From Candidatus Calditenuaceae archaeon (GTDB lineage: Archaea > Thermoproteota > Nitrososphaeria_A > Caldarchaeales > Calditenuaceae), in NCBI GenBank assembly GCA_025059595.1, contig JANXDI010000032.1, positions 1-12,343 of the forward strand: DNA of 12,343 bases, read 5' to 3'. Below, piece by piece: positions 1 through 12,343 of this stretch. The stretch's first letter is position 1; every line of letters begins with the position of its first letter. The notes beneath the pieces were generated by a model that saw only the letters and a program-made list of their open reading frames with translations, was not told the origin of the DNA and made no database searches. The translations under genes and the position numbers were made by a program.

Positions 1-84
1 CTTGGAGTGGCGTTTCTCCAAGGCCGGTTTGTAGCAGAGATAGTTAATTCAGCCCATTATTTAAAGTACAGCACCCCCATTTAA
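1..84 (-). repeat. Left copy of an 84-bp inverted repeat (partner 12151-12234). Interpreted as the transcribed leader of a second CRISPR array lying just left of the window and reading leftward.
   Basis: Bases 1-84 equal the reverse complement of 12151-12234 at 79 of 84 positions with no gaps (mismatches at 33, 39, 41, 50, 57). A hairpin CTTGGAG-N8-CTCCAAG lies at 1-22. Weaker ungapped similarity (blocks GTGAA, GTTCG, ATTTAT) continues to about 118. Confidence 0.75.
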
Positions 85-106
85 ACAAGTGAACGAAGTT
101 CGCTGA

Positions 107-114
107 AAATTTAT
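107..114 (-). promoter_or_regulatory. TATA-box candidate for leftward transcription of the left leader
   Basis: The minus strand reads ATAAATTT. The ATAAAT core (109-114) lies 25-30 nt from the edge of the conserved 84-bp block, the same offset as ATAAAT at 12121-12126 next to the right copy. This spacing fits an archaeal TATA-to-start distance. Confidence 0.45.
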
Positions 115-455: not shown

Positions 456-503
456 CTTATCTCCCCCAAAACGAGTGATTAACGTTAAAAGGTGGTGCTC
501 AAC

Positions 504-896
504 ATGAGTGGAACTGGGGTCCCGGATCTCATTAAACTGGGGGTAAAGATCGGGGCCAACCTAAAGGCTGATAATGTCGAGGCGGCTCAGGTCAACAAGC
601 TACTTGAGCTCCTCAATTCAGAGGAGGACGAGAGGACAGCGGTTGCCCTCGTTGCAATCTTCGCACATCGGCAGGCCAACAGGGGGTACATGAGACAGGG
701 CTCAGCAAGAGAAATCAGCATGGCCATGAGGCAAATACTCGCGATGGGAGATGGTAATAAATTGAAGGAGAATGCGAGGAGGGTTTTGGGGACCGCCAAG
801 TGGGTGTACGAGTCCTTAGGAAGGGTTAAGCAGCCTCCCGATAGAATCAGGGGAATCAGCGATATACCTGAGCTACTCAAGCTGCTAGAGGGGTAG
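504..896 (+). CDS. cas11: Type III small-subunit candidate (Cas11; Csm2/Cmr5-like)
   Basis: First gene of the operon, 130 aa from ATG 504 (the ORF track starts at GTG 492). GGTGGTG lies 6 nt upstream of ATG 504. The sequence is small, Ala/Leu/Glu/Lys/Arg-rich and helix-like, with no RAMP motifs. Size and position beside cas7/cas10 fit Cas11, but I recognise no diagnostic motif. Confidence 0.5.
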   Translation: MSGTGVPDLIKLGVKIGANLKADNVEAAQVNKLLELLNSEEDERTAVALVAIFAHRQANRGYMRQGSAREISMAMRQILAMGDGNKLKENARRVLGTAKWVYESLGRVKQPPDRIRGISDIPELLKLLEG

Positions 897-900
897 GCGG

Positions 901-1647
901 ATGCCTGTTAAAAGCTACTTTTTGCCACAAAGTCGTGTCGCGGACTTCGACCAGTTTAGAGCTGTATACATCCTCGAGGGGAGCTTGATTAACGAGACGC
1001 CCATGCGGATTGGTATGGGCAGAACAGAGCAGCTCGGAAGCGCCGCAGACGTCCCGCACATCAGGATCAGGAGGGGCGGGGAGGAGGTGCCTTACATTCC
1101 GGGCTCATCCCTAAAGGGCGCCTTCAGGAGCCTCGTCGAAAGAGTATCCGCGGCGATCTACGGCGCCGACTCAGTCCACCCTCCATTCGACTTTAAAAGA
1201 GCCGAAGCTGAATATTTAGAAAATAGAATTTGCCCCACCTGCGGCATCTTCGGCAGCACTATGGTGGCAAGTCATGTAGCTATCAGAGACTCCCTCCCGA
1301 AGGGGAGTGCCGTGATCGCGCAAAAGACGGGCATCGGGATAAACAGGGACTTTGGGGGAGTGCAGCCTGGGGCAGGGCCTTTCGTAGAGGAATACGTGCC
1401 GCCTGGTGTCGAGTGGACATTCCATATGAGAGTTACCAACATAGCCCTAGAAAGTGAGTCAGAAGACGATCCGAGGCCGGAGCTGCTCAGATTCCTTCTA
1501 TCGAGTTTGATTAGGGGGGAGATTCAGGTTGGAGGTAGAGCGAGCATCGGAGCCGGAGTGATATCACTTAGGAACATCAGGGCGCTGAAGAGGACACTGA
1601 ACTTAGAGGGTAGGTTGGTCGAGGCCGAGGTGAAATTAAAATTATGA
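901..1647 (+). CDS. cas7: Cas7-family RAMP backbone subunit (Csm3/Cmr4-like)
   Basis: Motifs IPGSSLKGAFRS and CPTCGIFGS, plus a C-terminal glycine-rich loop VGGRASIGAG. There is an Asp in GSAADVPHIRI where Csm3/Cmr4 carry the target-RNA cleavage Asp. The start is 5 nt after the upstream stop, with GAGGGG upstream. Confidence 0.85.
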   Translation: MPVKSYFLPQSRVADFDQFRAVYILEGSLINETPMRIGMGRTEQLGSAADVPHIRIRRGGEEVPYIPGSSLKGAFRSLVERVSAAIYGADSVHPPFDFKRAEAEYLENRICPTCGIFGSTMVASHVAIRDSLPKGSAVIAQKTGIGINRDFGGVQPGAGPFVEEYVPPGVEWTFHMRVTNIALESESEDDPRPELLRFLLSSLIRGEIQVGGRASIGAGVISLRNIRALKRTLNLEGRLVEAEVKLKL

Positions 1648-2591
1648 GCGCGGGGGTCGCCCATAACTGGGTATATCATTCAGTTATGATTAGACACGTT
1701 AAGCTTGAAGGCAGGATTAGAACATTAGAACCTCTTAGAGTTGGCATGGGTCGGAGCGAACAGCCGAGCGCTGTAACCGATATGCCAGTCATAAGGATAA
1801 AAGAGTTGAGTAGGGGTTTGGAGGTCCCATATATTCCAGGCTCCTCCCTTAAAGGTCTCTTTAGGAGCGCGGCCCAATCGCTAGCAAGGGCGGCCGGCGT
1901 TAGGCCGGAGCCATGCTCAGGGCTCTCTAAAGATAACTGCATGGTCTTGAAGAGAGTTGATGGAGAGCAGCTAGGCAACTTAGTTGATCGGCTGCTTAGG
2001 ATGGGAGAGTTTCAACGTGCAATAAACACTTTCGCGGATAGCGCGTGTCTCCTATGCAAGATTTTCGGATCCCCTACATACAAAAGTAAAGTATCATTCA
2101 TAGACTCCTATCCTATTGACGATGGAGGCCAGCTAGTAAGTGTTCCAGTAAGTGTGAAGACTGGAATAGCTATAGACAGATCAACCGGCGCAGTTTTTGG
2201 AGGAGCGCTTTACAGGGTTGAATTCGTGGAACCGGGGGCCCTCTTTACCCTCTCATTCACCATTCATAACCTTCCTAACTACGCTTTAGGCCTACTGTCA
2301 GAGATAGTTGAACTGCTGAACGAGGGGTTGCTTCGCGTAGGGGGGTTCAAATCGAGAGGTTTTGGAAGGGTCAAATTCGAAAAAGTCGACATTAAGGTAA
2401 GGCATCACCTGCCTATCTCGGGAAGCGAGGAGGGTTTGAACGCCCTCGACAGTTACGATGTACCTGTGATGGTGAAGAGGAGTGAGGTCTGTGACGGATT
2501 GCTAGTTTACAGTGGTAGCGAGGCAGAGAGCCTGCTGAAGGGGCTAAGGGAGGTATGGAGAAGATATGTCTCTTCAACAGGTAAAAGTTAG
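1644..2591 (+). CDS. cas7: Cas7-family RAMP backbone subunit, second paralogue (Csm3/Cmr4-like with insertion)
   Basis: Motifs IPGSSLKGLFRS, CLLCKIFGS and glycine-rich loop VGGFKSRGFGRVKF, with an Asp in SAVTDMPVIRI. ATGA start/stop overlap with the upstream gene, and GAGGTGA Shine-Dalgarno 10 nt upstream. Confidence 0.85.
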   Translation: MSAGVAHNWVYHSVMIRHVKLEGRIRTLEPLRVGMGRSEQPSAVTDMPVIRIKELSRGLEVPYIPGSSLKGLFRSAAQSLARAAGVRPEPCSGLSKDNCMVLKRVDGEQLGNLVDRLLRMGEFQRAINTFADSACLLCKIFGSPTYKSKVSFIDSYPIDDGGQLVSVPVSVKTGIAIDRSTGAVFGGALYRVEFVEPGALFTLSFTIHNLPNYALGLLSEIVELLNEGLLRVGGFKSRGFGRVKFEKVDIKVRHHLPISGSEEGLNALDSYDVPVMVKRSEVCDGLLVYSGSEAESLLKGLREVWRRYVSSTGKS

Positions 2592-3588
2592 GCGCTCCCC
2601 GTATAGGGACCGGCGAGAATTCCAGCCGATAGAGGGTTATATGTCTGTTGAGCTGGAAGTATGCGGCCCAAGCACATGTGGAGTAGAATCTTACTTATTT
2701 GTCGGGTCAGGCGAGGAGAAGATCTTAATTCGGGATAGAGGGGAGCTGAAGCGGCAGTTAGCTGCGAGAGAGTTAAGTGACGGTCTGATTCAGAGTATCG
2801 CTAAGGAGCTTGTATCTGAGGGCGAATCGTTTCAGAGGGCAAGAGACCCTGAGACTCAAATGGTAGTTCCTGTGATATTCGGGAGCTCTGTTAAAGGCAA
2901 CATCAAGTCAAGGCTGCAGCTAACGTTGCGGCCGTCTCAGGGAACAGCGGTTACGTGTATTTTCCCCTATAGGCCGCTTAAGGGTGCCCCTCCTGTCGGG
3001 ACGCATGGCTGGAGACACTTCCGAATATGGCAAAACTCTCTAGCCTACACTAGGGAAGGCGTATGCAATGCAACCAATTCTCCCGAGGTCTGCGTGGTAT
3101 GCGATCTACTCGGTGCCCCCGGTTTGTCATCCTTAGTTAGCTTTGGAACATTTTACGGGAGGGGGGTCTCTACTACAGAGCTTAGCGAGGGTGCCGTAAG
3201 GCTCGTCGCTGCGACCCCTGGCTCAAGGTTCACAGGCTCGATAAGCTTTAGAGGGCTGAAGTTGAGTGAGGTCGGACTACTTCTCATAGGTATGGGCTAC
3301 ACACTCAAGGGTGGCAAGATAGATAAAATGCCGGTCCTCTTCGGATCCCACAAGTATAGGGGCCTCGGAGGCAAAGTAATGGGTAGAGTCGTGTACAATG
3401 TGCGAGACATATCGACGTCATCTAGATGCAGAGGCGAGTATGATGTTAATCCTGGTCGGAAGTATGATGGTGGTGGGTTAGACGACGTACTTACAAAAGC
3501 GCTTAACCGGGCATATGAGGAATATGGCCAGTATATCGAACAGATAGATGAAAGTAGGGCTGCTGAAGAAGTGATGAGACATGTGTAA
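2566..3588 (+). CDS. Large divergent RAMP (Cas7-like; Csm5/Cmr6/Csx7-type candidate)
   Basis: Motifs VIFGSSVKGNIKSRL and CVVCDLLGAPG, plus glycine-rich loop GSHKYRGLGG. An alternative start at ATG 2641 (MSVELEV...) would remove the 26-nt overlap. Subfamily is not resolvable by eye. Confidence 0.65.
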   Translation: MSLQQVKVRRSPYRDRREFQPIEGYMSVELEVCGPSTCGVESYLFVGSGEEKILIRDRGELKRQLAARELSDGLIQSIAKELVSEGESFQRARDPETQMVVPVIFGSSVKGNIKSRLQLTLRPSQGTAVTCIFPYRPLKGAPPVGTHGWRHFRIWQNSLAYTREGVCNATNSPEVCVVCDLLGAPGLSSLVSFGTFYGRGVSTTELSEGAVRLVAATPGSRFTGSISFRGLKLSEVGLLLIGMGYTLKGGKIDKMPVLFGSHKYRGLGGKVMGRVVYNVRDISTSSRCRGEYDVNPGRKYDGGGLDDVLTKALNRAYEEYGQYIEQIDESRAAEEVMRHV

Positions 3589-6295
3589 CGGACTCAAGGT
3601 TTACAGAGCGTTCATAATTCCACTTGAGGGCGAGCGTGTGAGGGAGGTTAGAGATGACGATAAGGAGTTTTGGAGAGATCTGATAACTAATAATCTCAAG
3701 ACCTTCTTACGACTCTCCCTGGATTTGGCAGGGAAGGCTAGGGGGCAGGAGTTAAACCGCGCAGAGAGACTAGAGCTTTTAGCAGATCTGATCACCTTCT
3801 TTTTCAAAGCCCCCCTCACGTTAGATCCAATCCTAAGCTTGGCTCCCTCGCCGCACAGGTTATATTTCTATCTAAGACTCATGGGTAAGACCCATGAAGC
3901 CATACTGAGACACCCAATCCCTGATAACCAGATTCTATCCAGTATCAAGGTTCTTGAAGAGAGCCTTGAGAAGGAGGGGAAAAATCCGTTAACATTCCTA
4001 TATGGAGGACATGTGAGAGAAGCGGTCAGGAGGGCTTGGCTTATCTTCCCCGCAGACACGAGGCCGGGAGCCAATACGGCCAGCCTCGTCGCACACCTTC
4101 TAGTCACATCCTCGATAGCTTGGTCGCTCGCTTATCGCTCGCGACGGTATGAAAGTGGAGAGCTCGCTATGATCAGGCTCGCCTCGCAGCTACATGACAT
4201 AGCAAAGCCATTAGAACCTATCGAGCACTTCCGCGAAAGGGTTTATGGCTCTCTAATCGACTCGCTTTTCGAGGGGTTACTTGAGGAACACGAGTTGACT
4301 CAGCTGAAGTCAACCGTCAGCTCGCACCACCAGGATAGGACGAGCTCCCTGCATAGAGCCGATACACTGTCAGCCTCAATCGATAGAGTAAGGGAACTGG
4401 TGAGAAAAGCTCTCAGCGAGGAGTTCAACTCACCGGAAGTAAGGGAGATCGTCAGGAGTATCGCCAGCAATCAGACTGACCCGTTCGAGCTGGCCTATGG
4501 AGGAGGGAAGGAGGCGTGGACATTTTGGGTCGAACTAGAGAAGAGGTTATGCGGTAAATCTAAGGAACTCTCCTTAAAGTTTCTCGAGTGGCTTGACGCG
4601 CAAAGCGAGTACAAAGTGGAGCGACTCGCAATTGATGAGTTAAGCTACTTTCTCATAGACGTCAAGGGGGTCCAGTCTTTCGTTTACCGGTCGCATAAGC
4701 TTACCGCAGTCGCGGCGGCCAGCCTCCTCATCGACTACCTCACCGCCCTGGTTATCCCTCTTTACACCCAATTATACGTGAAAAAGAAAGCGGGAGGGGT
4801 ATGGCTCCCATTAGAGTCTTTCCTCCTGACCTCGGGTGCGAACGTAGCGGGCATATTGCCTAAAAACCTGTTAGATGATTTCCGTGGCGCTCTTAAATCT
4901 TTAGATGATTTCTTGAGTGATTATCGATTAGGCTTCAACACCGCATTTACTCAATTCCAAAATTTCTATCCGCATATGTGGGAGGAAATTGGAAGGGAGA
5001 TGGCCATTGTGAAGATTTCGCCCGGAATAGGTGTTGAAAATGATGTCGAGGAAGGTTTCAACCCAGCTCAACTGTGTAGGCTTTGCTTCAAGCAAGAGGG
5101 GATCCGTGAACTGAGGACTCTGGGGCCAGTTTGCGTCACATGCGATAGGCTTCAAGACTTTGGGAGGACGCTGGGCTTCGGTTCAAAATGGGAGTCGGGG
5201 TTTTTGCTGGAGAGAAAGATCGTCCCACAACACGTCTGGGGCTGCGAATATGGAGATGAGGGAGACGTCTCAAGCGTAGCGTCTAACGTGATGGAGCTGA
5301 TATCGGGAATGGAACCACCATTCGACGGGAGGGAGTTGAATGTAGGCGTCATCAAAGGGGATGGGAATAGGATGGGTGAGTTCTTCTCCAGGTCGATATC
5401 TATTAGCGATGCTCTCGAGAGGAGCTTCCGTCTTGACCAGTCCCTGCGAATCGGATATGAAAAGGCGATCAAAGCGATACTATCAGCTTACGGAGAGGAT
5501 GATATAAAAGCAAAGAGGGATGCCTGCAGGGTCTGGCTCGGGACACTCTATATGGGAGGCGACGACTTTCTAATAATATCACCTTCCTGGCTATCACTCC
5601 CCCTCGCATACATAATTGCGAAAGAGTTCGAAAATAATATGGGCGGTAGATGCACACTTTCGATCGGAATAGCATCTGTACCGGCTAAACACAGCGTTTG
5701 GCACGCCATCAAGGCAGCAGACGAGTTAATGGATGATGCAAAGGAGTCCATAGGGAGGCGGGAGCTAAAATCAGCGGTCTCATTTGATGTCGTTGAGCGG
5801 GGGCCGCTGACAGGAGAAACGGCCTTGACTAGGCTGAAACGTCAGACGGATCTAGGGCTGAGCGCCAAGCCTTATGTCCTCCACGACTCGTCTCAACTCG
5901 CGCTAGCTGACCTCCTAAGCGTTCTCGGATACAACTTGCAGAGGTACGACCCCGCTGATATTATGCGTGTAGCTACCCTTCACAGACCGCGGGGAGGGGA
6001 TACCCAGGAAAAAGTTAGGCTTAGGAGGGTTTGTGAGGCCGTCAGGGATATCCTATCATCGGTCGCCCCCATGATTGGCGGCTGGGATGAGTCGAAAAGA
6101 CGAGTGGCGCTCCTGCTATCTCAACTCTATTGTTATCGCGAAGCTATTGATAAGAGCAGAGATGAGGAGATCCGCGCAGCCTTTAGAGACATAACAACGC
6201 TCGCATCTAAGCGCGTATGGAGATCTTCGGTGGAATCGCTCCCTCTATTAGACCTCTACTTCTGTGCGAAGATATTGGGGGGAGGGGAACTGTGA
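3581..6295 (+). CDS. cas10: Cas10 large subunit with HD nuclease motifs and an intact GGDD cyclase palm
   Basis: 904 aa. Motifs present: PADTRPGANTASLVAHL; HD at aa 205-206 (nt 4193-4198); SSHHQD/LHRAD; Palm1-like YFLIDVKGVQSFVY; four-Cys finger CRLC...CVTC (aa 499-521); IKGDGNRMG; GGDD at aa 659-662 (nt 5555-5566). Confidence 0.95.
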   Translation: MCNGLKVYRAFIIPLEGERVREVRDDDKEFWRDLITNNLKTFLRLSLDLAGKARGQELNRAERLELLADLITFFFKAPLTLDPILSLAPSPHRLYFYLRLMGKTHEAILRHPIPDNQILSSIKVLEESLEKEGKNPLTFLYGGHVREAVRRAWLIFPADTRPGANTASLVAHLLVTSSIAWSLAYRSRRYESGELAMIRLASQLHDIAKPLEPIEHFRERVYGSLIDSLFEGLLEEHELTQLKSTVSSHHQDRTSSLHRADTLSASIDRVRELVRKALSEEFNSPEVREIVRSIASNQTDPFELAYGGGKEAWTFWVELEKRLCGKSKELSLKFLEWLDAQSEYKVERLAIDELSYFLIDVKGVQSFVYRSHKLTAVAAASLLIDYLTALVIPLYTQLYVKKKAGGVWLPLESFLLTSGANVAGILPKNLLDDFRGALKSLDDFLSDYRLGFNTAFTQFQNFYPHMWEEIGREMAIVKISPGIGVENDVEEGFNPAQLCRLCFKQEGIRELRTLGPVCVTCDRLQDFGRTLGFGSKWESGFLLERKIVPQHVWGCEYGDEGDVSSVASNVMELISGMEPPFDGRELNVGVIKGDGNRMGEFFSRSISISDALERSFRLDQSLRIGYEKAIKAILSAYGEDDIKAKRDACRVWLGTLYMGGDDFLIISPSWLSLPLAYIIAKEFENNMGGRCTLSIGIASVPAKHSVWHAIKAADELMDDAKESIGRRELKSAVSFDVVERGPLTGETALTRLKRQTDLGLSAKPYVLHDSSQLALADLLSVLGYNLQRYDPADIMRVATLHRPRGGDTQEKVRLRRVCEAVRDILSSVAPMIGGWDESKRRVALLLSQLYCYREAIDKSRDEEIRAAFRDITTLASKRVWRSSVESLPLLDLYFCAKILGGGEL

Positions 6296-6924
6296 AACTT
6301 ACCATCGAACTAAAGACTTTGAGTCTTTTCAATACGGGGGGAGTCACGCCCACTTTCATGTACTACGATATCCCGTTCCACCGGACGAGAGACCCGGGCT
6401 CGAGAATTTATAAACCGACCATTTCCGGCTCGAGCCTAAAGGGGGCCTTGAGGTCGGCTCTAATAAGAATCGCCGACGCATTCGGGTTGAGCGTCTGTTC
6501 CGAAAGGCCCAACTCACGCGACAATTGTGATATATGCTACCTCTTCGGGGCCCCTGGGGGTGGAGGATCAGTCTATGTCAGCGACCTTGTCTGTGACTCG
6601 AAGACACTCCTTTTAACTCACGTCTCACTAGACGACAGGAGCCTAACTGCGAGGAGACACGCTCTATACTCGGTGGAGTACGTTCCGCCCGGAACCATCT
6701 TCAGAGGTGAGATCGATTATGAGGGTGAGGCGAGACGGCTAGGCCCTCTCCTTCTAGCATTAGCGGCTCTAAGAACCGATAGGGTGGGCAGGAGTGGGAT
6801 TTTAGACCTCAGGGTGGTAAATGCCGGAGAAGTGAGGAGGAGCGTCTTAAAAGATCTCGGGAGGTACGAACCCCTATTAGAGGGGTTAGGGGTGTGGGCG
6901 TGGGATGAGATCCTACAGATGTAG
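6292..6924 (+). CDS. cas7: Short Cas7-family RAMP (Csm3-like), third backbone paralogue
   Basis: Motifs ISGSSLKGALRSAL and CDICYLFGAPGGGG. I place the start at GTG 6292 (VKLTIELKTLSLFNTGG, a typical RAMP N-terminus). It overlaps the cas10 stop as GTGA and follows GGGGGGAGGGG. The ATG 6217 of the ORF track lies inside cas10. Confidence 0.8.
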   Translation: MKLTIELKTLSLFNTGGVTPTFMYYDIPFHRTRDPGSRIYKPTISGSSLKGALRSALIRIADAFGLSVCSERPNSRDNCDICYLFGAPGGGGSVYVSDLVCDSKTLLLTHVSLDDRSLTARRHALYSVEYVPPGTIFRGEIDYEGEARRLGPLLLALAALRTDRVGRSGILDLRVVNAGEVRRSVLKDLGRYEPLLEGLGVWAWDEILQM

Positions 6925-7966
6925 GCTGAAGATCCTATCACCCACGATAATCGGAGACTCCCGGAGCCAGAGAGGGGTATACACAGCGACCCACATAATC
7001 CCGGGGCACACATTGGGTGGAGCGATAAACAGAGAGCTAGCGAGGAAGTATGAATTAAGTTCTATGACTTCGCGGGGCTTGGTGATTTCCTCGCCAGCTT
7101 ACCCAGCTAGGGAGGGAAGTGAGGCCATACCCGCCCACCCCTTTTACTATGAATGTAAGGTCTGTGATGATTTGAGATTCTCAACACTTAGAGAAGGTAG
7201 TCTCTTGAAAGTCGTGAAGGATGGGCTGACCGGTGTAAGGAACGAAGTTATCATGCTGAAGTGCGGTGTAGGACATCTGCTCAAGTCGCTACATCCTCGC
7301 CCCATAATGTTGATCCAAGGTAAGGTCGTGAAGACGAGTGTGTTGGTACAGCCACTAATCTCTGTAGGTATTAACAGGCACACCGCCTCATCCCAGACGG
7401 GACTACTTTACGAGTACACAGCAATAGAGCCGGGACGTGAATACTGGTTTACACTAGCGTCAATAGATGATCTAGAGGTGCCCAATAAGCTCGAGGTGAG
7501 ACTGGGTAGGGGCACTTCCAGAGGCTTCGGCAGAGCTCTCATTGAGGTAATAGAAAGAGAAGTGAAATTTAGTTATGATATAGAACCTGATTCATGGATC
7601 ATGATGTACGCTTTATCTCCAGTCCCGGCGAGATACATTAATAAGCGTCTCGAACTGAAGGAAAGCGCCAATAATTATGGTCTTGGAGGCGTCGACGGTT
7701 CCCTCGAACCAGTTATGGTTTTCGGTAAGCTGGAGTCCTTCAATTTAGGGTGGCCTCACGGATCGCCAGTCTCTCGCGGAAGGATAACCTGCCTAGTCGC
7801 AGGGAGCGTCATAATTTACAGATGGGCTGAGAGGCCGACGAACCCGCTCGAGTCATTGAGGGTTCTGAGGTTTTTAGGGATGCCTTTGCGACTGACTACG
7901 GACGTTATCCATGGACTCTGTATGCTACACCCCTTTAGGGAGGAGCCTTTACTGGAGGTCAGGTAA
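6905..7966 (+). CDS. csx10: Cas5-family RAMP (Csx10/Csm4-like)
   Basis: N-terminus CRLKILSPTIIGDS...THIIPGHTLGGAINRELA and glycine-rich loop LGRGTSRGFGRALIE. There is no CxxC-FG Csm3 motif. At 353 aa it could hold two RRM-like halves. The only RAMP here with Cas5-like rather than Cas7-like signatures. Confidence 0.6.
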   Translation: MRSYRCRLKILSPTIIGDSRSQRGVYTATHIIPGHTLGGAINRELARKYELSSMTSRGLVISSPAYPAREGSEAIPAHPFYYECKVCDDLRFSTLREGSLLKVVKDGLTGVRNEVIMLKCGVGHLLKSLHPRPIMLIQGKVVKTSVLVQPLISVGINRHTASSQTGLLYEYTAIEPGREYWFTLASIDDLEVPNKLEVRLGRGTSRGFGRALIEVIEREVKFSYDIEPDSWIMMYALSPVPARYINKRLELKESANNYGLGGVDGSLEPVMVFGKLESFNLGWPHGSPVSRGRITCLVAGSVIIYRWAERPTNPLESLRVLRFLGMPLRLTTDVIHGLCMLHPFREEPLLEVR

Positions 7967-7968
7967 CC

Positions 7969-8910
7969 ATGCACCTAAACCCTCTTCAAATTAGGGCATT
8001 GGGAAGGTTCACGTTCCGATGCCATTCAGGTCTTCAGATCGGAGTAAGGGGCGAGGGCACTCAGAGGTTCGCCCTCCGAGTAGGGGAAAATCTACTCATA
8101 CCCTCAACCTCGTGGAAAGGGGCTTTTAGGTCTGTCTCAGAGAAGATAATAGGCTCGATGGATCTGAGCGGTGTCGTAGCCCTTCTCCGCGAGCTTTACG
8201 GTGAGGATGAAGATGGGGTGGCGTTTAAAGATCGCAACGGAGGAACCGGCACTTTCGATAGAGTCCTAGATCAACTCACTGCCAACCCGGGCCAACTTAT
8301 CAGGGAGTTAGAGAGGCTCGTCGTTGGCAACGAGGAGCTGATGAGTAGGTTAAGGGGGATAAGGGAGTCAAACGAGTTGAAAAGGTTCCTAAAGGAGGAG
8401 AGGGAGGGGAAGAGCCTTACTCAAAGATATCTTGGCTTGCTGTATCCGATCACATCCTTGTACGGGTCACCGGGCCTCGCCGGTAAGCTACGATTCCTAG
8501 ACACGGTCGCGAAGGCGGTTACTCATTGGAGGCCCGGTGTAGGCATAAACAGGTCGACGATGAGATCTGAGGAGGGGGTGATCTACGGTACTGAGGTACT
8601 CGTCCCCCTAGGTCAAAAGATAACGCTAAGCATGCTGATTGATAATGTCCTCCCCGCGACGACTGAGGCTGGAATCCTAGCATCAACGATAGAGTTGATC
8701 AAGAGTGAGGGTATACGGATTGGCAGCTCGAAGAGTAGGGGGCTGGGCAATTTAGAGCTTGTTGAAGAGGAGTCGTGGATTAAGGTGATGGATATCTCAG
8801 ACAAGGTGGATGCCGACGTTAAGATAAGGTATGTGACCTCCCCTCGAAACTGGACCCACCTCTCTTTAAAAGAGGCCTTGACTTGGCTCGAGGGGGGCGA
8901 TGACATCTAA
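7969..8910 (+). CDS. Cas7-like RAMP with a ~90-aa helical insertion (Csm5/Cmr6-like cap candidate)
   Basis: Motifs IPSTSWKGAFRSVSEK and LYGSPGLAG, plus glycine-rich loop IGSSKSRGLGNLEL. No Asp in the loop where the other Cas7 paralogues have one. GGAGGTCAGGT Shine-Dalgarno upstream. Confidence 0.7.
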   Translation: MHLNPLQIRALGRFTFRCHSGLQIGVRGEGTQRFALRVGENLLIPSTSWKGAFRSVSEKIIGSMDLSGVVALLRELYGEDEDGVAFKDRNGGTGTFDRVLDQLTANPGQLIRELERLVVGNEELMSRLRGIRESNELKRFLKEEREGKSLTQRYLGLLYPITSLYGSPGLAGKLRFLDTVAKAVTHWRPGVGINRSTMRSEEGVIYGTEVLVPLGQKITLSMLIDNVLPATTEAGILASTIELIKSEGIRIGSSKSRGLGNLELVEEESWIKVMDISDKVDADVKIRYVTSPRNWTHLSLKEALTWLEGGDDI

Positions 8911-9118
8911 TCTCGGAGCGCTTAAAATAAGTAGAGTTTCAGACAGCGACATTATATTGAGAGCCATCTCGACAATACTGAATAATAAGGAGGAGATTGT
9001 AGAAGACTATCTAAGAAAAAGCCTCGAGAAAGGGGACTCGCGAGACACAATACTTAGTAGTCTAACTAAGTTGTTGTACGAGGTATGGAAAAGTTTAGGG
9101 AGTATTGGGGGGAGATAA
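8900..9118 (+). CDS. Hypothetical 72-aa helical protein (possibly the N-terminal part of the next gene)
   Basis: The ATG overlaps the upstream stop by 11 nt, and GAGGGGGG lies upstream. The sequence looks helical and I recognise no motif. The last 34 nt overlap the next ORF across a G6 run. Confidence 0.45.
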   Translation: MTSNLGALKISRVSDSDIILRAISTILNNKEEIVEDYLRKSLEKGDSRDTILSSLTKLLYEVWKSLGSIGGR

Positions 9119-10092
9119 ATGAAAGAGAATTAGAGAATACACCCGCGAGAGATATCCTCTCGGAGCTCATTTCATTAGTGAACAAGGAATTTGTTAGTCG
9201 ATGCTACGATACTTACACTGAAATACTTATAAAGAAACTTTGCGAATATCAAAGTAAAAAATCTAGGATCGGAGACCTCATGATTATCAGATGCACCTTA
9301 CAAAGTCTCCTAATTGAAAAACATGTAGAAAAAATGACTTTTAGGGACGAAGCCGGTGAATTAAAACCATTAATAATTAGCGTGCGCAAAGATTTAGACC
9401 CTCGTTCGGAGGTTCAGTTACTGAAAGTAGTTTACGATCTCTACTTACGGCACGACCTTAGAGTTTTAGACCAAGTATTATATTTATTTTCAAACTATAA
9501 TTTTGAGCAGGGCGCGAGGTTGATAAATGAATACTTAATAGCTACGGACGAAGAGTCTAAGCAGAAGGCTATAAGCGAGATCGTTAAAAGTGCGCGAGCA
9601 ATAAAGAGGATTGGCGAGCTAGCACTGGCAAATGGAGATTATATGGACGTTTTGATGACACTGTTAAATGCTTTTCGATATATTTATCCAGCAAACTTAG
9701 TAGAGATGCTAACAGATCATTGGAGCAGGCTTGGCGAATATCTTTTGTGGTCTATTATGTTGCGGCATGGGGTTTTGTTTAGCCTTAACGCAGAATTGAA
9801 CCCTACCTTATGGAGCGGCACAGAGAAGAATAAGGCCGGTGAATTCGACGCGATCCTGCTCCCCCAAGAGGATCTTGATCTTATTTTTGTGGACGTAACC
9901 CTTGCGAGAGAGTTGAATGACAAGATTCAGAAATACGGCGAATTCCTTAAAAAAATCTCTCGTGAGGTTGGTGTGCGCGCGGCTGTATGGATTGTGCACT
10001 CAAGTTACGCAGATCGATTTGATGCTGATACGCAAGACGACCTCAAACTCATACCCCTGACATCCCTCCCCGACATCATTGCATCTTCGTGA
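9085..10092 (+). CDS. Hypothetical 335-aa protein: helical N-domain plus restriction-endonuclease-like (PD-(D/E)xK-type) C-domain with a non-canonical motif
   Basis: Long ORF and last gene of the operon. The C-terminal pattern reads as alpha-beta-beta-beta-alpha-beta: EYLLWSIMLRHG / VLFSLNAEL / GEFDAILL (D255, nt 9847-9849) / LIFVDVTLA (D270-V-T272, nt 9892-9900) / ELNDKIQKYGEFLKK / AAVWIVHSS. No CARF, HEPN or RAMP motif recognised. Confidence 0.7.
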   Translation: MEKFREYWGEINERELENTPARDILSELISLVNKEFVSRCYDTYTEILIKKLCEYQSKKSRIGDLMIIRCTLQSLLIEKHVEKMTFRDEAGELKPLIISVRKDLDPRSEVQLLKVVYDLYLRHDLRVLDQVLYLFSNYNFEQGARLINEYLIATDEESKQKAISEIVKSARAIKRIGELALANGDYMDVLMTLLNAFRYIYPANLVEMLTDHWSRLGEYLLWSIMLRHGVLFSLNAELNPTLWSGTEKNKAGEFDAILLPQEDLDLIFVDVTLARELNDKIQKYGEFLKKISREVGVRAAVWIVHSSYADRFDADTQDDLKLIPLTSLPDIIASS

Positions 10093-10555
10093 GAATTCCG
10101 TACATATTGTGCTATCCGCGGCTCTGACTTTCGGATTTGGATTGTTTTCAACGAATACTATGGCTACGCCGAGGCGGTTTTGCCATATTGGGGATATATA
10201 GTCTTGACTGTGTTGTTGGCTTTTCGACATGTTAGGATCTTCCCTTTCCGATATCTTTCCACGATCGTCAATAGAGGTTTAGCCGCCTCATAATCTCATC
10301 ATTGTGAGCTCCCTACATTGAATATATCGCCTCTGTCATGAATCTGTTCCGATTAACAGCGCTCTAAGGGCATTGTGGTCAAAGAACTTTCGGAAGGCTA
10401 GCGGGGAGTGTCTCCCGTCTGCGCAGACTCTTTGTAAGCCTCGATGCTCTCTGCGACGGAGTGAGGCGAGCCGCGAATTAGGCACTCTTCTCTGATTAGA
10501 TGTGGAGGGGAGACTCGACGAAAGGGTTAAAGTGAAGAAGACGCCAGTGAGTTTC

Positions 10556-11233
10556 TCACGGAGTCTCAGTCTGGATTCCGAGCTCCCGCAATATTGGCTT
10601 GATGGGAACGTCTACCCTCCTACTCTGGACAGCAACCTCAACCTTGTCAATGACCCCGGACTCTTGAGCGAGTCTCAGAGCTATGAGGAGCTGTGATAGT
10701 GAGTGATAAACCCTCGGCCAGTACCTTGAGTCTTCCGAGAGGCCCTCCCAATCGGGCGCGCTTCTAATATCTACTTTGGCCCTGTGAATCTCGGCTAGCT
10801 TCGCGGCGGGGCTAACCGACCAGCGCCTGTAAGCCCCGTCATCACCTGTGACTAGGATCTTTCCAGTTACTAGGTATGGATCTATTCTGGGGATGGCGGT
10901 GTCGCATGGATGGCCCGCAGTTGGGAAGACGTTCGGCCTTAACGTCATGACCTCTCTTAGAGAGAGGTAGGCTAAGCTGTCGAGGAGCTCTCGCGTGTCT
11001 TCGAGCCTGCCTTTCTTAACGGCTTCATAGACCCTCCGCTCAACCTCTGAAACGACGCATTCAGGCAGGACTATGGAGTGTCCCATGTAGCACAGAGTGT
11101 GGATCCCATAGTAGAGTACGTTTGTGTCGATGATTAGTTCCCTCACTCCCGCTCCATCCCTGAGGTCTAAGGAGTTGACACCCTCGGCGGATTTGCCGAA
11201 AGTCTTAAGGTTCGCACAGCCACTCCAAGCCAA
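10556..11233 (-). CDS. PIN-domain nuclease (VapC-like fold) with a ~90-aa C-terminal extension
   Basis: PIN motifs RELIIDTNVLYYG (D36, nt 11126-11128), SEVERR, CDTAIPRID and ILVTGDDGA supply the four acidic positions. The TTG start at 11233 from the ORF track is doubtful. GTG 11146 (VRELIIDTN) preceded by GGAGCGGGA is the best stand-alone start. The frame stays open upstream to 11365. Confidence 0.7.
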   Translation of the reverse strand: MAWSGCANLKTFGKSAEGVNSLDLRDGAGVRELIIDTNVLYYGIHTLCYMGHSIVLPECVVSEVERRVYEAVKKGRLEDTRELLDSLAYLSLREVMTLRPNVFPTAGHPCDTAIPRIDPYLVTGKILVTGDDGAYRRWSVSPAAKLAEIHRAKVDIRSAPDWEGLSEDSRYWPRVYHSLSQLLIALRLAQESGVIDKVEVAVQSRRVDVPIKPILRELGIQTETP

Positions 11234-12023
11234 TAATTCGTCAAACCCTCTATCACCCAGCTGTGACAGGAAACGCGACAGCCTTGAAAGAAGACCGCCC
11301 AGCTTACCCGCGGTGTAGAGTCCTCCCTCTCGAGCAAGTTCACGGCCCCCCGCGGGACTTTCACCTCAAGAACCGGGTCTTCACTTACTACGGACGGGTT
11401 TAGGAGACCTAGGTCAGCATATTCATTAACCCGCCTTGACAGCTCTCCAACACATCTTCTCGAGGGTCCAACGAGCCACCCCGCTCTCTCTTCATGTTCT
11501 AAGTCGGCGGCGAACCTGGCCGAGCTCCTGAATACTTTGGGAGCCGCGTCCTGGTGAGGCGTCAACGTGATAATTGGCTCAAGCCTCCAGGGACGTAGGG
11601 GTACGCGAGCCCAGCCCACTCGCCCCAATAGAACTCCAAGTGGGCCAGAACGATCCTCGAGAAGTCGGCGGCCTTCTTGATGAGGCCGGAGCATGCGATG
11701 GCGATGGCCGCCGCTACTCTCCTGCTGGCGGGTGAGAGGACGGCAACAACGCTCTTCGCATCGCTCAAGGCCGGCTCTATGACCTGGCCGTTTATGCTGT
11801 TAGATAGCCCAGGGCTCTCCTCAACCTCGAGCTTGGTCCTTCGAGCCCTACCCTCTCCGAACAAGGTACTCGCGACCTCCGCGACCTTCTGAGACTCGCT
11901 CTCCCCCCTATCGTAAATGATGTGGACGGAATTTACTTGAAATTCCTCGTAACATCTGTAGAGGCAGGAGAGCCCCGCCTCTACCGCGAGAGGCCCGCTA
12001 CTGACTGGTAAGACGAGCCTCAT
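11167..12023 (-). pseudogene. CARF-domain protein with a probable winged-helix C-terminus (Csa3-like), interrupted by at least one frameshift
   Basis: Frame 1 (12023 to 11565) reads MRLVLPVSSGP..., SVHIIYD... and VVAVLSPASRRVAAAIAIA..., with CARF-like strand/loop motifs, then EFYWGEWAGLAYPYVP and a stop at 11562-11564. A second frame continues protein-like (RLEPIITLTPHQ...RRCVGELSRRVNEYADLGLLNPSVVSEDPVLEVKVPRGAVNLLERE). A TTTTATAT box 27 nt upstream of ATG 12023 suggests a leaderless start. Confidence 0.55.
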
Positions 12024-12045
12024 CACATTGAATTCAAATGCCCCG

Positions 12046-12053
12046 ATATAAAA
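12046..12053 (-). promoter_or_regulatory. TATA box for the CARF gene (leaderless transcript)
   Basis: The minus strand reads TTTTATAT, centred ~27 nt upstream of ATG 12023 (MRLVLP...). This is the classic crenarchaeal leaderless geometry and argues against the ATG 12065 start of the ORF track. Confidence 0.55.
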
Positions 12054-12118
12054 GCGAGCGGCCATTCAAAGACGCGCGGCCGCGGAGGCCGACTCTACAG
12101 GCTTTCACGAGCAGAACC

Positions 12119-12126
12119 ATATAAAT
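12119..12126 (+). promoter_or_regulatory. TATA box for the right CRISPR leader / pre-crRNA
   Basis: ATATAAAT lies 25-30 nt upstream of the conserved leader block starting at 12151. A box at the same offset is present beside the left copy. Confidence 0.5.
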
Positions 12127-12150
12127 GTCTCTCGAACCCAATTCACCATC

Positions 12151-12234
12151 TTAAATGGGGGTGCTGTACTTTAAATAGTGGGCTAAATTAACTGTATCTG
12201 CCACAAACCGGCCTTGGAGAAACGCCACTCCAAG
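12151..12234 (+). repeat. Right copy of the 84-bp inverted repeat; transcribed leader of the CRISPR array starting at 12260
   Basis: The reverse complement matches 1-84 at 79/84 positions. It ends 25 nt before the first CRISPR repeat. A hairpin CTTGGAG-N8-CTCCAAG lies at 12213-12234. Confidence 0.75.
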
Positions 12235-12259: not shown

Positions 12260-12343
12260 CTGACCCCAAAAAGGGAATTGAGAGTGGTAATCGAGAATCT
12301 TTAGCTTTCGAGGTAGCTCTTTGATGCTCATCCCAAAAAGGGA
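12260..12343 (+). CRISPR. Start of a CRISPR array (repeat 1, spacer 1, partial repeat 2), continuing beyond the window
   Basis: CTGACCCCAAAAAGGGAATTGAGAG (12260-12284), a 42-nt spacer (12285-12326), then CTCATCCCAAAAAGGGA to the window end. The period is 67 nt and 15/17 comparable positions are identical. The repeat resembles the crenarchaeal ...CCCAAAAGGGATTGAAAG family and ends in ATTGAGAG where those end in the 8-nt tag ATTGAAAG. Fewer than two units are visible. Confidence 0.6.

Follow-up and report, generated by a model that had tools for sequence, protein, structure and literature searches.

What follows the eight core genes of a type III-D CRISPR effector operon in a Candidatus Calditenuaceae archaeon, and could it be a nuclease that serves the immune system? 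The window analyzed here is an entire contig of 12,343 bp from an Aigarchaeota / Candidatus Calditenuaceae metagenome-assembled genome (MAG). After the operon, it contains a 335-amino-acid (aa) open reading frame (ORF) that runs from ATG to stop at 9085-10092 (+) and has the NCBI product accession MCS7146538.1. A sequence-only reading of the same DNA had taken this ORF for a complete gene that may represent an undescribed class of accessory protein, with an all-helical N-domain and a restriction-endonuclease-like core. We find that window 8900-10092 is one 397-residue gene, split by the loss of one G in a run of seven (G7). With moderate confidence, we read its product as a CARF-less, Can2-like accessory nuclease of an SsoCsm-type III-D operon, broken here by frameshift and dispensable or costly.

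The 335-aa ORF is present where the sequence-only reading placed it, but it is not a complete gene. A 72-aa ORF at 8900-9118, which overlaps it by 34 nt, is the true 5' end of the 397-aa gene. The parts of the gene are:

8900-9112 (+): true 5' end, residues 1-71 of the 397-aa protein, read in the window as the separate 72-aa ORF at 8900-9118.
9107-9112 (+): G6 homopolymer and frameshift site, intact as G7; an indel relative to contigs L018 and L001.
9085-10092 (+): the flagged 335-aa ORF, of which 9085-9112 is out-of-frame overlap with the upstream piece.
9113-9696 (+): rest of the alpha-helical N-part, residues 72-266, with helices in the AlphaFold2 (AF2) model and no family matches.
9697-10089 (+): predicted C-terminal PD-(D/E)xK domain, Can2/Card1-like, residues 267-397, from AF2 elements and Foldseek.
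9949-9955 (+): A7 homopolymer, a second slippage site, A8 in L001.

The 72-aa ORF stops just past the G-run, which has six Gs in the window and seven in both L001 and L018; with seven, the two ORFs fuse. L001, a Logan contig, differs from the window at three positions across 12.1 kb. Two of the three are homopolymer lengths within the 397-aa gene (G7 vs G6 at 9107-9112, and A8 vs A7 at 9949-9955), and the G-run is one of just two indels between these sequences. L018, an 813-kb contig of GCA_033581375.1, is a third assembly of the window lineage. It is 99.935% identical to the window over 12,285 nt, the sole indel being G7, and it encodes an intact 397-aa protein (MDW8073143.1, P0025) identical to the reconstruction from G7. 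Homologs of 389-391 aa, which form a second lineage about 27-28% identical to that of the window (lineage 1), align across the junction (residues 34-396 vs 32-389, E-value 4e-26); residues 34-71 of the 397-aa protein align to residues 32-67 of homolog P0002. The GC content of the 72-aa piece (0.40) is as low as that of the remainder of the gene. Because G7 alleles fuse the two ORFs, homologs span the junction and the 72-aa piece shares the low GC, we treat them as one gene.

The flagged ORF is thus the 3' 82% of the real gene and encodes residues 72-397 from position 9113. Its first 8-9 residues (MEKFREYW) come from reading the real gene out of frame, which puts the length of the helical N-part at ~265 aa rather than the ~215 aa given earlier. 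The hypothetical protein of 335 aa in the public annotation is an artefact of the split gene, and the full 397-aa protein is to be preferred.

Might the G6 allele still be functional, through programmed -1 ribosomal frameshifting, transcriptional slippage, or operation of the two ORFs as separate working subunits? Homopolymers can promote slippage. The 335-aa ORF also begins at an ATG of its own (9085), which lies within the upstream ORF, and frameshifts in a predicted linker in lineage 2 likewise leave two complete ORFs. Yet the G-run is not in X XXY YYZ register in the 0 frame, and the GAGGT that directly abuts the ATG at 9085 is poorly spaced for a ribosome-binding site. Intact G7 alleles occur in near-clonal contigs, and the A8 allele of L001 simply truncates the nuclease core, giving a protein of 355 aa without strands beta4 and beta5. 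Programmed frameshifting at the G-run was rejected, as no stimulatory RNA structure was found downstream of it (z-score 0.57). We consider a working split gene highly improbable. The G6 site falls in predicted coil.

AlphaFold on the single sequence gave a model that was unusable (predicted local distance difference test, pLDDT, 38.7). An AF2 model from a 7-sequence alignment had a predicted template modeling score (pTM) of 0.65, with pLDDT of 70-90 over most of residues 125-397. Its C-terminal ~130 residues are predicted to form a helix, three strands, a helix, a strand, a strand and a helix, which is PD-(D/E)xK topology (with H for helix and E for strand, H267-289, E294-300, E315-320, E328-334, H340-356, E361-367, E382-386 and H387-396). 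The alpha-beta-beta-beta-alpha-beta restriction-endonuclease core that had been read from the sequence is therefore also what AF2 predicts, and its nearest solved structures are those of Can2, Card1 and Cdn1. In the N-part the model has helices and a single small hairpin, with low confidence over residues 1-121. Confident helices at residues 121-262 precede the core; they may correspond to the alpha-helical insertion (INS) domain that lies ahead of the nuclease domain in Can2/Card1 proteins (CARF + INS + REase, DUF1887-type). The earlier all-helical N-domain holds in this model, with no Rossmann or CARF fold, although not at its earlier length.

A Foldseek search of the PDB placed ten TbrCan2 chains and Card1 as the 11 best matches, with probability 1.0 and E-values of 5e-5 to 7e-4. 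Alignments to Can2 span 305-328 columns. Lower ranks hold PspGI, Cdn1 (rank 14), R.BspD6I, HindIII, Cas4-like ACE1 (E-value about 0.1), Bax1 and NucS, and Cdn1 is itself a Can2-family protein (PMC12825302). A viral structure library returned just generic PD-(D/E)xK proteins. No CARF match was found in Pfam, NCBIfam or PADLOC, and no NxTGGTK-like motif is visible in the family sequences.

The candidate active-site residues E218, GEFDAILL (D255), LIFVDVTLA (D270-x-T272) and the Lys-rich helix ELNDKIQKYGEFLKK are all located as they had been described. In the numbering of the ORF, with that of the full protein in brackets, they are:

9736-9738 (+): Glu218 (Glu280), on helix alpha1, the E with which the motif opens; conserved in the two lineages for which the region is available.
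9841-9849 (+): Glu253-Phe-Asp255 (E315-x-D317), the ExD of strand beta2; invariant in all lineages.
9892-9900 (+): Asp270-Val-Thr272 (D332-V-T334), strand beta3; D or E at position 332, then an invariant Thr in place of the Lys of ExK families.
9922-9933 (+): Lys280 and Lys283 (K342 and K345), at the start of helix alpha2, candidate relocated catalytic lysines; invariant in all lineages.

E315, D317, T334, K342, K345, W364 and S368 never vary across the four lineages that we recovered, and position 332 holds either D or E. The replacement of the canonical Lys by Thr, first noted in the window alone, thus extends to every lineage, as do the two lysines on the next helix. The resulting family motif, E-ExD-(D/E)VT-K(xx)K, is a hybrid of two published Can2 motifs and identical to neither. 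Jungfer, Sigg and Jinek report that most Can2 proteins carry E-ExD-(E/S)CK, and that clade 1 Can2 proteins, from type III-D loci, carry E-ExD-SxTTS-K without the ECK (PMC10783487). In TbrCan2 of clade 1, the substitutions E304A, D343A and K369A abolish DNase activity, and Lys369 sits on the next helix (PMC10783487). The spacing from E to ExD is 37 in TbrCan2 and 35 in the target, that from D to the third motif is 13 and 15, and that from the third motif to K is 13 in both (Ser356 to Lys369 and D332 to K345). E280 matches TbrCan2 Glu304 by position; these equivalences come from spacing and secondary structure, not from superposition. The earlier suggestion of a relocated lysine thus has a characterized precedent in the catalytic Lys369 of clade 1 Can2 (PMC10783487), and by analogy the following helix would most likely supply the catalytic lysine here.

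The domain could instead be non-catalytic, inactivated by the Lys-to-Thr change and serving as a nucleic-acid-binding or docking adaptor, or as an extra III-D subunit comparable to the lineage-specific Cmr7. The canonical lysine is missing in every member, no sensor domain was found, and the gene lies within the effector operon, overlapping the preceding stop. Against this, inactivated PD-(D/E)xK domains usually lose acidic residues, whereas E, ExD, D/E and the two lysines of the next helix are all invariant here, and to judge from the alignment the intact acidic residues argue against a dead nuclease domain. An active enzyme with the same substitution pattern also exists (TbrCan2, SxT plus Lys369), and a stoichiometric structural subunit is not expected to tolerate the frequent frameshifts described below. 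We regard a non-catalytic role as unlikely.

How close is the protein to known nucleases? The best structural match of the model, TbrCan2, is a clade-1 Can2 (Thebr_0943; PDB 8Q3Y-8Q44) that is activated by cyclic tetra-adenylate (cA4) and belongs to a type III-D system. The two proteins share the lack of the canonical ExK lysine, a Thr at that position, a Lys on the following helix (catalytic in TbrCan2), an alpha-helical region (predicted in the target) ahead of the nuclease domain, and the association with type III-D. Unlike TbrCan2, the target has no CARF domain and no NxTGGTK, which leaves it unable to bind cA4 as Can2 does. At the position of TbrCan2 Ser356 the target retains an acidic residue, and the two show no significant sequence similarity. 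The target gene is the last gene inside the effector operon rather than a separate ancillary gene, and it is archaeal and found in few lineages. Card1 (PDB 6XL1), SthCan2 (7BDV), Cdn1 (8Z4I) and Can1 (TTHB155, 6SCE) have the nuclease fold in common with the target, and the motifs fall in register (Can1 TEVDGVFF...LWFVECK, SthCan2 SNELDVVF...LHVIECK, target GEFDAILL...LIFVDVT), with the acidic residue of ECK retained in the target. They differ from it in the canonical Lys of their ECK and in their CARF domains, of which they have one or two.

More distant are the type II restriction endonucleases and the NucS, Bax1 and Cas4-like nucleases, which also have an alpha-beta-beta-beta-alpha-beta core with acidic metal ligands. 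In contrast to the target, these generic PD-(D/E)xK nucleases have different accessory domains and no CRISPR operon linkage, and they rank below the Can2 family. CARF-less genes with a nuclease fold in or near archaeal type III cassettes, like the target, were catalogued by Shah et al. (2019) as clusters 37 and 45, proposed to associate with the effector complex; none has been biochemically characterized (PMC6546367). Set against the target by description, these clusters come from other taxa and subtypes, among them a variant of Sulfolobus type III; one of the clusters carries an HNH annotation.

Calling the protein an undescribed accessory class was therefore an overstatement: CARF-less genes of restriction-endonuclease fold in type III cassettes are already catalogued (PMC6546367), and the core resembles Can2. 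Both the fold and the active-site variant have characterized relatives. New are the combination of a Can2-like core without CARF, a new helical region and the position of ninth gene in an SsoCsm-type operon, together with a gene-specific homopolymer polymorphism. Since there is no CARF and no NxTGGTK, the protein is not to be filed as a member of the Can2 family; it is better described as a Can2-like nuclease module in a different architecture.

The operon that the gene completes is made up of eight core genes of an SsoCsm-type III-D effector (492-8910, +), all intact in the window and recognized by RAMP, Csx7, Csx10, Cas10 and Csm2 matches. They are listed here with the convergent gene that lies beyond the 397-aa gene:

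492-896 (+): cas11, from profile matches.
901-3588 (+): three cas7/Csx7-like RAMPs, from profile matches.
3581-6295 (+): cas10, with LHDIAKP and GGDD motifs in its translation (HD and GGDD).
6217-6924 (+): short RAMP (cas7), from profile matches.
6905-7966 (+): Csx10-like cas5, from profile matches.
7969-8910 (+): last Csx7-like RAMP (cas7), from profile matches.
10556-12065 (-): convergent CARF-PIN effector pseudogene in three reading frames, matching PADLOC PDLC01984 at profile positions 1-130, 124-179 and 252-426.

The genes follow one another exactly as in the type III-D SsoCsm operon sso1424-1432 of Saccharolobus solfataricus, in which eight subunits form the whole complex (PMC9945777). 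The eight genes upstream of the 397-aa gene already account for the full SsoCsm subunit set, and all eight have RAMP, Cas10 or Cas11 profile matches, whereas the 397-aa protein has none. The first 11 nt of the 397-aa gene lie within the end of the preceding RAMP gene, whose stop is at 8908-8910. In lineage 2, the gene begins 3 nt past the last RAMP (cas7) gene of the same eight-gene operon at every locus seen, and in all visible contexts it comes ninth, immediately behind the eight-gene SsoCsm-type III-D operon. The linkage to a type III locus that the sequence-only reading had drawn from the window thus recurs in a second lineage. The convergent gene differs between the two, being CARF-PIN in the window and Csx1 (CARF-HEPN) in lineage 2, and so the linkage is with the effector operon and not with one particular CARF effector. 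The lineage-2 locus (L006) is a complete CRISPR-Cas locus, with cas6, csa3, csa1, cas1, cas2 and cas4. Cas6 and a Cas_NE0113 protein are encoded upstream at L006 1-1291; cas4, cas2, cas1, csa1, csa3 and a second cas6 lie at 16779-21172, beyond a gap of ~4 kb that probably holds the array.

How widespread is the family? A full HMMER scan of 1.84 billion representatives recovered only four relatives, and word-indexed profile searches, cluster look-ups, and genome and metagenome scans added only close variants. The four lineages all come from hot-spring Nitrososphaerota/Thermoproteota MAGs, including Candidatus Terraquivivens. Lineages 1 and 2 are known at full length, and two further lineages just as C-terminal pieces at contig starts (P0003, 44% identical, and P0004). 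At position 1 of L003, L004 and L009 (Candidatus Terraquivivens ruidianensis and a related MAG), two independent assemblies break at exactly one and the same nucleotide, where the nuclease-like domain begins (KHEVLFSF...), which may reflect strain-level hypervariability in the helical part upstream or shared data. Housekeeping genes lie downstream in these contigs, and there is no convergent CARF gene.

Scans of the ORF, the full protein, the C-domain and family members against Pfam, NCBIfam, PADLOC and PHROGs gave only noise (Lant_dehydr_N, E-value 0.005, below cut-off). The earlier statement that no known Cas or accessory family profile recognizes the 335-aa ORF is thus borne out for Pfam, NCBIfam, PADLOC and PDB sequences. 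There is no Pfam or NCBIfam match to Cas4/Csa1 or DUF234 at E-values up to 10; the nuclease domain has no conserved cysteines, and the Fe-S cysteine cluster of Cas4 is absent. A bridge alignment that included Can1 found noise in the PDB, or just Can1 itself. With Thermus Can1 as query, only near-identical plasmid copies were found, and a query with the SthCan2 CARF fragment found nothing. No relatives were detected by tblastn against phage and plasmid collections or by a viral-contig scan; the low GC of the gene notwithstanding, there is thus no support for its recent origin from a virus or plasmid. That GC is 0.39-0.41 (window 8900-10092; L008 9908-11083), vs 0.49-0.59 for the rest of the operon. 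Low GC, both overall and at third codon positions (GC3), would be expected of a foreign gene as well as of one drifting towards AT under weak selection.

If the nuclease reading is right, a fast-evolving helical N-terminal region of ~265 aa would be joined to a PD-(D/E)xK domain of ~130 aa, and the protein would act as a metal-dependent nuclease, co-expressed with the effector complex and supporting interference. It would not be gated by cyclic oligoadenylate (cOA) via a CARF domain. Control might instead be exerted by the helical region, perhaps by dimerization or by contact with the complex; the direct docking proposed in the sequence-only reading is conjecture. Can2/Card1 nucleases are understood as cOA-gated effectors. 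A CARF-less relative inside the effector operon that retains an active site like that of clade 1 would, if confirmed, show a nuclease module wired to type III immunity in another way, and would offer a small, tractable test case for messenger-independent effectors.

The gene breaks repeatedly, and at homopolymers. Within the 397-aa gene family there are five distinct frameshift alleles at four homopolymer runs:

Lineage 1: intact G7, broken G6, in the window.
Lineage 1: intact A7, broken A8, in L001.
Lineage 2: intact A6, broken A5, in L011-L016.
Lineage 2: intact A6, broken A7, in L019 and L020.
Lineage 2: intact A8, broken A7, in L021.

Broken alleles make up ~10 of ~29 lineage-2 contigs and two of the three lineage-1 assemblies. 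The A5 allele occurs on two haplotype backgrounds, and L013, which carries it, is 99.75% identical over 12.3 kb to the intact A6 strain L008, with no further indel. The A6 run, changed to A5 or to A7, sits in the linker predicted between the domains, and either change leaves one clean ORF for each domain. Among homopolymer runs of at least 6 nt, four of six vary inside the gene and none of 16 outside it (Fisher's exact p about 0.002, hand calculation), and no frame-breaking indel was found in any core cas gene across the loci examined. Because alleles broken at homopolymer runs are common, the gene is probably dispensable or costly. The confinement of frameshifts to one gene, beside eight intact core genes, offers a natural gauge of how costly or dispensable an accessory nuclease is. 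Elsewhere in the operon just one coding indel was seen: the second cas7 of L012 and L014 carries an in-frame insertion of 24 nt (at L008 3252).

Sequence change in the gene is also fast. The eight core proteins share 44-59% identity from one full-length lineage to the other, vs 28% for the 397-aa protein. Within lineage 2, the ratio of nonsynonymous to synonymous substitution rates (dN/dS) is 0.57-0.79 for the gene, vs 0.16-0.43 for neighboring cas genes; one cas-gene comparison lies outside this range and is based on very few substitutions. The corresponding ratio of polymorphism proportions (pN/pS) for the N-part is about 0.6-1.1 in most pairs within lineage 2 and up to 2.3 in the closest pairs, where there are very few substitutions; this part of the protein thus evolves almost neutrally. 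The alpha1-to-alpha2 core is nearly invariant within lineage 2, and the N-part and tail vary.

So, is this a working nuclease of the type III-D system? Several results count against it. The canonical (D/E)xK lysine is absent, with Thr334 in every lineage, so that activity is not assured. Searches of PDB sequences and profiles with the ORF and the family alignments gave only noise, with no match to Can2 or Card1, and hhalign of the family against the Can1 nuclease domain, although in register, is not significant (E-value 0.16-0.25). The model depends on 7 sequences only, and its global TM-scores to Can2 are low (0.25-0.32). The operon linkage was examined from the protein outward, from homologs to their loci. 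To these points are added the elevated dN/dS, a GC3 of 0.38-0.44 vs 0.50-0.69 for core genes in both lineages, the five frameshift alleles, and the apparently eroded locus of the window organism, with its CARF-PIN pseudogene and arrays of 2-3 repeats. Low global TM-scores are expected if one domain and some helices match, and the negative Pfam result is weak, because the nuclease domain of Can1 itself gets no Pfam match.

Much of this could also describe a decaying remnant, perhaps of a Can2-type effector without its CARF, under relaxed selection and with no current immune role, in which the frameshifts are steps of pseudogenization. The high dN/dS and pN/pS, the low inter-lineage identity and GC3, and the number of broken alleles all favor this explanation, as does P0004, which looks like a C-terminal remnant. 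In the window organism the remnant reading gains weight: all three assemblies have the CARF-PIN gene as a pseudogene, the arrays consist of 2-3 degenerate repeats, no cas6 or adaptation gene was called in the 21-kb stretch of L018 around the locus, and the third cas7 of L018 has a nonsense codon. However, at only 27-44% identity between lineages, the catalytic-type residues and the core from alpha1 to alpha2 remain invariant, and the gene has stayed at exactly the same place in the operon, although the core genes now share only about 50% identity. In lineage 2, most alleles are intact. The A6 run has changed in both directions, to A5 (-1) and to A7 (+1), with A5 on two haplotypes, which looks more like recurrent slippage in a maintained gene than like one-way decay. 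After either of the two linker frameshifts, each domain still has a clean ORF of its own. We consider a remnant unlikely, though it is the least doubtful of the alternatives, and retain the accessory nuclease as the preferred reading.

A bolder form of the accessory-nuclease reading can be drawn from the same data. A Can2-derived nuclease may have swapped its cOA sensor for a rapidly diversifying helical domain, be activated by direct contact with the III-D complex in place of a second messenger, and be turned on and off across the population by slippage at short homopolymer runs, as a phase-variable, costly effector gene in an archaeal CRISPR operon. We think this full combination quite improbable and offer it as speculation.

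The surroundings of the window locus have further features. The CARF-PIN gene is broken identically in the window, L001 and L018, and is a real pseudogene because its state is the same in both other assemblies. The spacer between the convergent genes (10093-10555) is unusually long, at ~460 nt. It was tried as a Csx1 remnant and rejected, having no similarity to Csx1. A minus-strand 76-aa ORF (10000-10230) is called as a gene in L001 and has no lineage-2 counterpart. An Rfam scan of the window gave no matches.

In the third cas7 (2566-3588), L018 has two substitutions relative to the window, at 3410 and 3413, one of which changes codon 283 from TCG to TAG and truncates the third Cas7. This gene is the positional equivalent of sso1427, a capping subunit reported to be non-essential for RNase activity. 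The nonsense codon occurs in a strain with an intact 397-aa gene.

A 114-nt inverted repeat (window 1-114 and 12121-12234, 84% complementary) flanks the locus and resembles two outward-facing CRISPR leaders. Tiny arrays lie at window 12260-12343 and at L018 917-1076 and 13359-13458, with the window ending within the right-hand array. Their repeats are 25 nt long, CTGA(C/T)CCCAAAAAGGGAATTGAGAG, and occur in 2-3 partly degenerate copies at a spacing of 66-68 nt.

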